A stretch of DNA of 64,000 bases from a virus. Lineage: Duplodnaviria; Caudoviricetes. Where the stretch lies: IMG/VR virus record IMGVR_UViG_3300042997_002652, positions 202,968 through 266,967 of that record; one strand, written 5' to 3'. Numbering within the stretch: the first letter of the stretch is position 1; every line of letters starts with the position of its first letter. The notes under the pieces were generated by a model that did not search any database, was not told the DNA's origin, and worked only from the letters and a program-made list of their open reading frames with translations. The translations under genes were made by a program, and so were the position numbers. This document shows positions 23,728-25,816 of this stretch, piece after piece.

Positions 23728-24261
23728 ATGACATCACCACAAAAAGCAAAAGGTAATTCTTGGGAAAGAACAGTCGCTATATATCTTAGCGACTTATATC
23801 AATCCAGCTTTCATAGAATCCCTAATTCAGGAGCTTATGTTGGTGGAAAGAATTCTGTAAGAAAAGAATCTCTTGACACGAACCAAGTAAAGTCTTTTAA
23901 AGGTGATATAGCTGCTCCAGATTCATGGGTTAACTTCAATTGTGAATGTAAATCTTATGGAGACTTCCCGTTTCATCAAGTTCTAGCAGGTAGCTGTAAA
24001 CAACTTGATGGATGGTTAGAACAGTTAATGGCAGTAGCAGATAAAGACGATCTAAACATTTTGTTTGTTAAGATCAATCGCAAAGGTAAGTTTATCGCTG
24101 TTCAAACTAAGTACACATGGGTTACTGACCAGTTTATGTACTATACATCTAAAAATCAGGGTGATTGGATTCTCGTTGACTTTGATCATTTTTTTAATCA
24201 TAATAAAGACCTTCTTAAAGTATATTCAAACTCTAATTCTCAACCCGACACCAAGTCATAA
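23728..24261 (+). CDS. PD-(D/E)xK nuclease, Hjc-type Holliday junction resolvase-like
   Basis: KAKGNSWER..FHRIPNSG..GDI..NCECK matches the Hjc pattern (K-G-x-x-x-E-R, D, E-x-K); follows gp46. Confidence 0.7.
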   Translation: MTSPQKAKGNSWERTVAIYLSDLYQSSFHRIPNSGAYVGGKNSVRKESLDTNQVKSFKGDIAAPDSWVNFNCECKSYGDFPFHQVLAGSCKQLDGWLEQLMAVADKDDLNILFVKINRKGKFIAVQTKYTWVTDQFMYYTSKNQGDWILVDFDHFFNHNKDLLKVYSNSNSQPDTKS

Positions 24262-24270
24262 TTATTAACA

Positions 24271-24750
24271 ATTCGTTTAGTCGGGATAGCCCGACTCTCC
24301 TTGAGACTGCTAGCATAGTGCTATTGCCGTTGGATTCTGGAGTAAGCGTACAATCTAGTAGTAATTGATTGTACGGAACACCGACAGGGCTCTCGTTATG
24401 TGTGCGAACCCTGAATGAGTCTATATTTTATTCTATCTTGCGGATATAGAACATGCGTTGCTGAAGCGATAGTGATTTGTTCACTATTAGTCTTCAACTA
24501 CAGTCCCAGCAAACCTTACAGAGCAACCGGTGGCGTTAGGTAGCTAAACGGCTAACTCTAACGGGGAACAGATGGCAAAGGCGAGAGGCCGCAAGGAATC
24601 TTAACCAGTGGTAGTGCTGTTTAGCACTACCATGGCTTCAAGACTGCAATGATTTAAACCCCAGATATAATTTAATCAATATGATACCGAAATGAGTATG
24701 AGCAAAGCGAATACGAATGAGTGTATCAGTTGTCCGTAAGGACAACTTTT
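24271..24750 (+). ncRNA. Putative large structured non-coding RNA of unknown family
   Basis: The only ~500-nt gene-free gap in the window and visibly richer in G+C than its flanks. About ten stems can be read directly, e.g. AGTCGGG/CCCGACT (24279-24296), CGTACAATC/GATTGTACG (24347-24375), TGGTAGTGCT/AGCACTACCA (24609-24632) and AGTTGTCC-GTAA-GGACAACT (24728-24747). G-U wobbles and a GNRA loop favour the + strand. Confidence 0.75.
24728..24750 (+). terminator. Intrinsic terminator-like hairpin closing the structured element
   Basis: Perfect 8-bp stem with GTAA tetraloop followed by TTT, just before the stop of the converging minus-strand gene. Confidence 0.65.
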
Positions 24751-24758
24751 AATATAGA

Positions 24759-24986
24759 TTAAAAGAATGGAAGTTTAGATTTCTTTGTTGTTTCTAAGTT
24801 GGATTCAATTAGTTCACTTACTAATTTTCTTTCCGGTGCAGATAAATTAAGGGCGTCTGTATATGACAGTCCGCCCCTAGAATACCATGAAAAAGAAAGT
24901 GCTTGTCTTTTTATCTCAATACATTCTTTTTCTAGCTGGTCAATCAGGCTCTTTATATCCTCAGGGGCTAAACTAAGGAGCCTCAT
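24759..24986 (-). CDS. Small protein downstream of gp26 (gp51-like baseplate hub assembly factor by position)
   Basis: 75 aa, ATGA-coupled to gp26; T4 has gp51 next to gp26. Assignment is positional. Confidence 0.5.
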   Translation of the reverse strand: MRLLSLAPEDIKSLIDQLEKECIEIKRQALSFSWYSRGGLSYTDALNLSAPERKLVSELIESNLETTKKSKLPFF

Positions 24987-25816
24987 CCGAAAAAATCGGA
25001 TACATTCAACGTAAATGGTTGTTGATATTGGTGATTACATTCACCGCATTGTAATGCCAAAGGTTTTAAGTTAGTTTTTTCTTTTAAGTTAGCGTTATGC
25101 TCTTTGATTGCATTAAAAGTATCTCTAGAACAGTTTCTTAAAAAGTCTTCAATAAACTCTTTATTATCTACTCTATGCCCATCAGGAGTTTCAACATATT
25201 CTATAGTTTTAGCTATAAGTTTAATTGATAACTCTGTAATAGTTTTTAACCCTTCTTGAGATTTTTGTTCTTTTATTGAAGCATCTTTTTCTTGTTCAAC
25301 GGACAATAGCAACCTTTGTAAATCAAATTGTGCTAAATTAGCTTGATTGATGTCATTATAATCCAAAGGATTAAACTTTAACTTTAGTTCAAGAACTTCT
25401 AATTTTTCTTCATAGTCAGGTGACGTTAGCCCACTTAGTACAAAATTTAGATCAATTGCATAAGTTGCTTTATTCTGGCAAGCAGGGCACTGTGAATCTA
25501 GTTCTAAACTATTTCCAGTAGAAGCTACTTTGATTCCAATCAATATAGTGTCTAAATCAATATTGTTTATTTTCCATGGATCTTTGATATCAGGTATACA
25601 ACTTTTTATAAGATCAACTATTACATTACCGTTAAACAATGCATCGGGTGTTTTTGTAGTAATTTCATCAATCGCTGTCATAGGATAAACAGGTATTTCT
25701 TCTGTTTCTGGATAATTTAAAACATCAGGAGTATAATATTTACCCTTGGATGGTAGCTTGATATAGATAGCTGGTCTTCTAAAGTATTGCTTTAGTGGGT
25801 TATTAGATGTACTCAT
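24983..25816 (-). CDS. gp26: Baseplate hub assembly protein, gp26-like
   Basis: NPLKQYFRRPAIYIKLPSKG..YPMTAIDE..DLDTILIGIKVAS.G..CPAC..CGECNH are gp26-family motifs. Confidence 0.8.
   Translation of the reverse strand: MSTSNNPLKQYFRRPAIYIKLPSKGKYYTPDVLNYPETEEIPVYPMTAIDEITTKTPDALFNGNVIVDLIKSCIPDIKDPWKINNIDLDTILIGIKVASTGNSLELDSQCPACQNKATYAIDLNFVLSGLTSPDYEEKLEVLELKLKFNPLDYNDINQANLAQFDLQRLLLSVEQEKDASIKEQKSQEGLKTITELSIKLIAKTIEYVETPDGHRVDNKEFIEDFLRNCSRDTFNAIKEHNANLKEKTNLKPLALQCGECNHQYQQPFTLNVSDFFG

Follow-up and report, generated by a model that had tools for sequence, protein, structure and literature searches.

A structured RNA of about 470 nt encoded behind a resolvase-like nuclease gene in uncultured T4-like phages

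The 64,000-nt stretch of phage DNA analysed here (the window) contains, at positions 24262-24751 of the + strand, the gene for a stand-alone structured RNA of ~470 nt, carried by an uncultured T4-like giant phage. The RNA recurs in hundreds of related phage contigs, and belongs to a large, uncatalogued family from uncultured T4-like, often giant, phages. Its structure is far beyond chance: compensatory changes support nearly every helix, including two pseudoknots, and two short boxes displayed by the RNA change in step between relatives.

Genomic setting and relatives

The RNA gene lies at the start of 24262-24982, the longest interval of the window that lacks long open frames (the runner-up measures 349 nt). 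The GC content of the RNA stretch is 0.40-0.46, compared with 0.30-0.38 in its flanks, and its + strand folds better than shuffled sequence (z -3.8). The flanking genes agree with an earlier note, made from the letters of the sequence alone, that had assigned this DNA to a T4-like phage. They encode a Metallophos (gp47-like) protein, an AAA_23 (gp46-like) protein, a nuclease (Pfam PDDEXK_15 at 4.7e-25; phrog_244, RusA-like Holliday junction resolvase), a gp26-like protein (Pfam T4_baseplate at 3.2e-18), and a lysozyme-bearing hub protein of 1080 aa. The gp26-like gene is found downstream of the RNA in 75 loci. Between the terminator and this gene lies a 75-aa ORF (24759-24986, - strand), conserved in 23 related loci, for which no Pfam or PHROG family was found.

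The 267-kb record of the phage contains a single copy of the RNA and no tRNA genes. Outside the window, the same record (G000:C1, ~168987-169409, - strand; locus L303:388-814) has a permuted (two-piece) tmRNA gene, which scores 78.9 bits with the Rfam tmRNA_permuted model (gathering score 47) and 64.9 bits, below the gathering score, with beta_tmRNA; the tag peptide according to ARAGORN is ANDEFALEDIRLAA. This tmRNA may hint at a betaproteobacterial host of the phage.

A protein search with the nuclease returned 21 IMG/VR loci, 15 of which have a downstream gap that is 68-82% identical to that of the window. The signature pattern of the invariant hairpin P11 (Table 1) is present in at least 117 IMG/VR contigs, some of them 244-524 kb long. 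Profile searches with nhmmer gave 135 matches (97 full-length, 61 below 92% identity), and further collection yielded 188 distinct homologous stretches in IMG/VR phage contigs; a lack of conservation in relatives, which according to the earlier note would have refuted a functional RNA, is thereby dismissed. No similar DNA was found among 50,697 deposited phage genomes, and a scan of 185,579 bacterial and archaeal genomes with the signature pattern did not find it there.

Table 1. Genes and RNA elements of the locus, with positions in the window
Feature	Position	Strand	Remarks
Resolvase-like nuclease gene	23728-24261	+	177 aa, PD-(D/E)XK; upstream neighbour; last gene of the gp47-like/gp46-like operon
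5' leader	24262-24278	+	Conservation from about 24268 (ACAAUU.GUUU; alignment A2)
P1 hairpin	24279-85/24290-96	+	Single hairpin in 75/75 homologues despite sequence change; covarying columns
P2 long hairpin	24297-24342	+	CUCC/GGAG base; conserved internal loop UUGAG / GGAU(U)CU; variable distal stem-loop 24309-27 (stem 24311-15/24319-23)
P3 hairpin	24346-24376 (stem 24347-55/24367-75)	+	Variable length; RNAalifold compensatory pairs
Central four-way junction	24379-24532	+	Closed by P4 (24379-83/24528-32); model R1, alignment A4
P5	24385-24413 (stem 24385-89/24409-13)	+	Inside the four-way junction
P6	24415-24454 (stem 24420-27/24443-50)	+	Inside the four-way junction
PK1 5' strand	24433-24438	+	P6 loop; partner 24570-24575
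P7	24457-62/24522-27	+	Encloses P8 and the near-invariant joining strand 24497-24521
P8	24462-24496 (stems 24462-66/24492-96, 24469-75/24481-87)	+	Hairpin in 73/75 homologues
PK2 5' strand	24504-24507	+	Joining strand within P7; partner 24564-24567
P9 hairpin	24535-24562	+	9/9 pairs with compensatory changes
Strand GGGGAACAGAUGGCAAA	24563-24579	+	Provides the 3' halves of PK2 and PK1
P10 hairpin	24580-24606	+	Ends pair in 53/65 homologues; Box A in apical loop
Box A	24589-24596	+	P10 apical loop; GCAA loop in this phage
P11 hairpin	24609-24632 (stem 24609-17/24624-32)	+	Both strands invariant in the main family (61/61 sequences); loop variable
Conserved tail UGGCUUCAAG...	24633-24651	+	Contains Box B
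Box B	24644-24651	+	Tail after P11
A/U-rich linker	24652-24682	+	Length and sequence vary (alignment A2)
P12 hairpin	24683-24727 (24683-87/24723-27)	+	Tandem G-A motifs; core GAGC-AAA-GCGA
Intrinsic terminator	24728-24751 (stem 24728-35/24740-47)	+	8-bp stem, GUAA loop, U run; stem covaries
75-aa ORF and gp26-like baseplate gene	24759-25816	-	Convergent; downstream of the RNA

Covariation and fold of the RNA

The overall fold (Table 1) consists of a 5' domain (P1-P3), a four-way junction (P4-P9) with the pseudoknots PK1 and PK2, a 3' domain (P10 and P11), the hairpin P12, and the terminator. RNAalifold predicts 66 pairs from 61 sequences, 47 of them with compensatory changes. For the central domain we used a covariance model (R1, 196 positions) to realign 97 sequences. 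Covariation among relatives, on which the earlier note had made its claim depend, is plain in this alignment of the central ~200 nt: 98.5% of the pair cells are paired, as opposed to 30-37% when the partners are slid, and both sides change in a compensatory manner at 33 of the 39 pairs. None of 500 shuffles reaches any of these measures. The alignment was fitted to the model and therefore leans slightly towards structure; an analysis that relied on MAFFT only agrees with its result. PK1 is 99.6% paired in 93 sequences, with compensatory changes at all five core pairs (slid controls, 22-60%), and PK2 is 98-99% paired, with such changes at every pair. At each stem of variable sequence (P1, the distal part of P2, P3, and P8), 62-75 of 70-75 homologues keep one hairpin; for P3, the hairpin forms in 62 of 70, with a median z of -4.6. 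All of the stems that the earlier note had listed by eye are present where it placed them, and nearly every one is real, with compensatory changes in relatives; the GNRA hairpin that it took for a terminator is the GUAA-loop intrinsic terminator.

The homologues contain 128 G-U or U-G cells vs 6 A-C or C-A cells, from which it follows that the RNA is read from the + strand, the strand initially proposed. The same asymmetry bears on the idea that the locus functions at the level of DNA, as a structured replication origin, a packaging site, or a protein operator. Such an element could account for P11, an invariant 9-bp inverted repeat, and for a position between convergent units beside recombination genes; however, an excess of G-U over A-C is sensible only for a + strand RNA, the pseudoknots covary, and P11 is replaced by a different hairpin in diverged variants. 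We find a DNA-level element scarcely credible, and a replication origin, which had been the main alternative in the first reading, is disfavoured because of the strand asymmetry and the pseudoknots. P11 as a DNA operator was ruled out separately: the length of its spacer varies across relatives, which is consistent with the loop of a hairpin but not with a dimer site in double-stranded DNA.

No conserved ORF was found in the RNA. The 42-codon frame of the window is open in just 5 of 61 homologues, and the longest ORFs in the homologues are no longer than those in shuffled sequence; a conserved small ORF, another outcome that would have overturned the initial claim, did not materialize. The generic criteria for a structured non-coding RNA (compensatory changes above controls, strand-specific G-U pairs, and the absence of a conserved ORF) are thus met.

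Several details of the fold deserve comment. RNAalifold also proposed a long-range helix, GGAGU/GCUUC, which is invariant and competes with the CUCC/GGAG base of P2. We prefer the latter, given one compensatory case (CUCU/AGAG in one homologue) and a covarying counterpart in the diverged V2 variants (CCCA/UGGG). Mimicry of the anti-Shine-Dalgarno sequence by CCUCCUU in P2 was likewise rejected, as these variants carry CCCA/UGGG at that place. In the junction, position 24532 of the P4 3' strand covaries not only with 24379, to which it is paired, but also with 24515 of the joining strand; the three nucleotides could be a base triple or reflect an alternative pairing. The invariant ACUAC of the central joining strand (24497-24502) recurs as part of the P11 3' strand (24626-24630), and both copies could pair with GUAGU of the P11 5' strand. 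Perhaps it is because of this alternative pairing that P11 never varies.

Comparison with known RNAs

A covariance-model search of Rfam, suggested in the earlier note as a check, returned no family: none of the 4227 families of Rfam 15 matches the entire window at the gathering score, and at E<=10 the interval 24100-24900 gives merely two chance-level fragments. ARAGORN detects no tRNA and no tmRNA in the window. With Rfam models and ARAGORN, then, RNase P RNA, group I/II introns, tmRNA, SRP RNA, 6S RNA and tRNA are all unmatched, in keeping with the failure of the first reading to recognize a tRNA, tmRNA, RNase P RNA, SRP RNA, or group I/II intron by eye. The same tools detect the permuted tmRNA elsewhere in the genome, so they work on this DNA. 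A by-eye impression of an RNase P-like P4 and of group I-like elements is unsupported by the Rfam models. We did not find the RNA described in the literature, with the reservation that fragments of it are not excluded from the IMG/VR structured-RNA catalogue, which contains motifs of 29-151 nt only (PMC10690425).

GOLLD, ROOL, and OLE are large multi-domain, covarying non-coding RNAs of unknown biochemical function, the first two of which are found in phages (PMC12286853). The window RNA resembles them in being large for a non-coding RNA, multi-domain, strongly covarying, and without a known function. It differs from them in being smaller, in not being located beside tRNA genes (none adjoins it in 60 loci), and in having no sequence or structure match to them; whether it self-assembles is unknown. 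Covariance models of GOLLD, ROOL, OLE, HEARO, and raiA do not match it at the gathering score or at E<=10, and ten variant loci are unmatched at E<=1.

The closest known relative emerges from the diverged variants. Phages in which the nuclease is 53-63% identical carry diverged RNAs at the same place. Variant V2 retains P1, P2 (with CCCA/UGGG for CUCC/GGAG), P5, a UACAG-G.CAAC-CG core, the G-A-rich hairpin, and the terminator, and has a different GC-rich hairpin in place of P11; the window RNA shares its P12 module UGAGCGAUAGCGAA with diverged variants. Variants V1 and V2 have their 3' half in common (69-77% identity over 130-226 nt), and the first ~135 nt of the ~550-nt V1 RNA match RF01718, the Polynucleobacter-1 motif, with 112 bits in locus L223 and 103 bits in L231 (membership threshold, the gathering score of 37 bits). 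The window RNA itself does not match RF01718, either at E<=10 (24100-24900) or, for the whole window, at the gathering score. Our profile of the main family matches the 5' domain of V2 loci only weakly (26-31 bits), and model R1 gives a single weak match on the diverged loci (L019, at the expected place, E=0.02). The link between the window RNA and RF01718, on which membership in an uncatalogued, Polynucleobacter-1-extended superfamily would rest, is a chain of partial similarities with no single significant direct alignment; accordingly, we regard RF01718 as the closest known relative of the window RNA and not as its family.

The Polynucleobacter-1 motif was reported in 2010 by Weinberg et al. 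from Burkholderiales and from freshwater and estuary metagenomes, and appeared there among the possibly cis-regulatory elements, without a known function (PMC2864571). Like the window RNA, it sits directly after the nuclease stop codon in the related phages of loci L223 and L231 and comes from freshwater or estuary samples; the function of both RNAs is unknown. The rest of the V1 RNA that bears it is linked by sequence to variants with P1, P2, P5, and a P7/P4 core like those of the window RNA. Motifs that can be read as shared are the UACAG-G.CAAC-CG core, a GC-rich hairpin between twin boxes (Box A and Box B; Table 1), a G-A-rich hairpin, and a terminator. In contrast, the 5' domain of the window RNA (P1-P3) is unlike Polynucleobacter-1, and RF01718 covers just 141 nt and is possibly cis-regulatory, whereas the window RNA is a terminated gene of ~470 nt. 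The earlier suggestion of a functional non-coding RNA, possibly of a new class, must be qualified accordingly: the RNA is real and has no Rfam family, but it is not wholly isolated, given that diverged sister RNAs start with Polynucleobacter-1.

A further RNA of this kind (L306:4600-5114, - strand) is encoded on a 6.5-kb contig binned as a Haliscomenobacter MAG. It matches RF01718 with 92 bits; behind the match come a core resembling the one in the phage RNAs, the twin boxes AUCGAAAU, and then a G-A-rich hairpin with a terminator. No nuclease and no gp26 homologue was found on this contig.

Expression, neighbours, and twin boxes

A conserved sigma-70-like promoter was not found upstream of the RNA in relatives; one site at 24176-24204 that agrees with the sigma-70 pattern in 10 of 12 positions is unconserved and was treated as chance. 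We infer that the RNA is most likely the 3' end of the transcript of the gp47-like/gp46-like/nuclease operon. In the absence of transcript data, statements about its ends, processing, and abundance are inferences. The terminator, the stem of which covaries in relatives, faces the convergent gene.

Such an arrangement would also suit an RNA without any role in trans, that is, a cis-acting 3' UTR that protects or regulates the operon mRNA or insulates convergent early and late units from each other. The RNA has no conserved promoter of its own, ends in a terminator, and closes an operon opposite convergent late genes, all of which is consistent with this explanation, as is the listing of Polynucleobacter-1 as possibly cis-regulatory (PMC2864571). 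Nevertheless, a stabilizer or terminator would need far less than ~400 nt with a pair of pseudoknots, joining strands that hardly vary, and boxes that change in step, and the RNA is retained where the upstream gene changes. We therefore consider a purely cis-acting element unlikely, although it remains possible that the RNA acts in cis on the operon mRNA.

An RNA that lacks its own promoter depends on processing at its 5' end, and the knotted core could be catalytic, for instance in releasing itself from the operon transcript. The size of the RNA, its double pseudoknot, and the near-invariant unpaired nucleotides of its junction resemble those of large ribozymes. We nonetheless judge a ribozyme to be quite improbable, because there is no similarity to an Rfam ribozyme family, no cleavage site or activity is known, and diverged variants swap entire domains.

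Proximity to the nuclease gene raises the possibility that the RNA serves the PD-(D/E)XK enzyme as an obligate partner, a guide, or an inhibitor. In 85 of 86 loci the RNA follows the nuclease gene, starting at a median distance of 12 nt from its stop codon. The nuclease gene is present in at least 578 IMG/VR loci, and among the best 80 of these the RNA is found in 78, the remaining two being cut off by the contig end. Moreover, a four-way junction, the shape of the RNA core, is bound by resolvases. However, the linkage breaks in several ways: an additional ORF lies between the nuclease gene and the RNA in L230, L234, L235, and L246, about 20 loci of a variant nuclease clade have other ORFs (e.g., a FabG-like reductase) and no RNA, the RNA is absent in the cultured relatives PA5oct and Phosso, and L306 has a related RNA with no nuclease homologue on the contig. 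We also tried a guide hypothesis and rejected it, as the variable linker and other segments give only chance-level matches in the 267-kb phage genome. Because both flanks, the nuclease and the gp26-like gene, are conserved, the adjacency of nuclease and RNA is simply gene order; the nuclease is a conserved neighbour of the RNA, not an obligate partner, and we hold a machine composed of the two to be highly doubtful.

The omega RNAs of TnpB and IscB offer a comparison, being likewise structured RNAs encoded directly beside a small nuclease gene. The window nuclease differs in being a resolvase-like PD-(D/E)XK enzyme and not a RuvC-type one, and there is no transposon end. The window RNA fails the criteria for an omega-RNA-like guide: it has no variable guide with a target, its linker having no target-like match in the phage genome, and its co-occurrence with the nuclease breaks in relatives.

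Three observations concern these nucleases and their surroundings. The nucleases of the RNA-bearing clade have Ser/Thr/Asn-rich C-terminal tails of variable length (window 24210-24261; alignment A5), which are missing from the nucleases of RNA-less relatives (alignment A5). In a sister clade, a gene for a FabG-like short-chain dehydrogenase overlaps the nuclease stop codon at the place of the RNA (L248:3009-3647), and no RNA was detected there; the same arrangement without the RNA is found in L249, L251-L253, L259, L264, L282, and L285. Finally, Sinorhizobium phage Phosso has 1 kb without annotated genes immediately upstream of its resolvase gene (L141:1487-2500), in which model R1 finds nothing significant.

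The RNA also carries a pair of boxes (Table 1), Box A and Box B, whose common core comes in at least 10 types and switches jointly in the two boxes from one relative to another. The commonest, GGCAA, is present in the majority of sequences; the other cores are GGCAU, GGCAG, CGGUAA, AGCAAU, CAGCAU, AGCAGU, GAUAAU, AGUAAU, and GUUGAA. Of 29 RNAs with a non-consensus tail, 17 have an exact 6-mer in common with the P10 loop of the same molecule, vs 13% of other RNAs, a comparison that is uncorrected for shared ancestry. The variants have twin boxes too, located in two loops with ACUC and AUCU as flanks (for example, GGAUGAA, AGAUGAA, GAUGAU, AUGAAGAG, and AUCGAAAU). For this phage and the relatives closest to it, agreement between the boxes is limited to GCAA and its flanks (7-mer Hamming distance 1); in this phage and some relatives the two boxes are unlike at the first core position. 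GGCAA, the consensus box, also occurs within the P7 3' strand, so part of the box identity could be ancestral. We searched the RNA for an anti-box that varies in step and found none, and the non-consensus boxes have no internal complement at all. Complements of GGCAA in the P2 distal strand and the P7 5' strand were rejected as anti-boxes, since they remain unchanged when the boxes change. The absence of an in-step complement within the RNA implies a partner in trans.

These features lead us to favour, with somewhat more confidence than doubt, an operon-derived scaffold that acts in trans and presents the same short sequence twice to a partner. The RNA would be made as the last part of the gp47-like/gp46-like/resolvase-like operon transcript, with its own terminator as the 3' end, and it would then act as a compact folded scaffold, possibly with proteins. 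Its knotted core is predicted to display both boxes, that of the P10 loop (Box A) and that of the tail behind P11 (Box B), as single strands, and the RNA most likely recognizes the same short sequence twice, either on a single partner nucleic acid or on two copies of it. The mechanism is inferred, and both the partner and the outcome are unknown.

One more specific idea about the partner is that the boxes are codon-like specifiers by which the RNA holds two like tRNAs by their anticodon loops. Every box type has a core that can be read as a triplet with an A behind it, as would be seen if the box paired with a tRNA anticodon plus U33; in the main family these triplets are GGC, GGU, AGC, AGU, GAU, and UUG, and in the variants AUG, UCG, and CCG. 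We rate this idea as very unlikely. The boxes resemble the specifier in Stem I of T-box riboswitches in logic only, in that a short exposed triplet plus A changes between relatives and the scaffold stays constant. Unlike a T-box, which is defined by a 5' leader position and an antiterminator with UGGN, the window RNA follows a gene and is not the 5' leader of an aminoacyl-tRNA synthetase or amino-acid gene, has no antiterminator, and contains two boxes (differing at the first position in this phage) instead of one specifier box; the Rfam T-box riboswitch model does not match it.

Whatever the partner of the proposed scaffold, large and intricate RNAs of unknown function are rare, and earlier examples led to new biochemistry. 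The RNA described here is abundant, its hundreds of phage contigs including many from genomes of 240-520 kb, and, by the pattern scan of 185,579 cellular genomes, phage-only, and its covariation is strong enough for modelling, probing, or cryo-EM. Polynucleobacter-1 now has the look of a 5' domain that can be exchanged within a much larger modular RNA, and no longer that of a short cis-regulatory leader. For finding the partner, the jointly changing boxes provide a concrete handle. If the tRNA reading were true, the RNA might protect tRNAs against the anticodon nucleases of the host or offer them to an enzyme that repairs or modifies them, and would represent a new type of phage-host RNA interaction.
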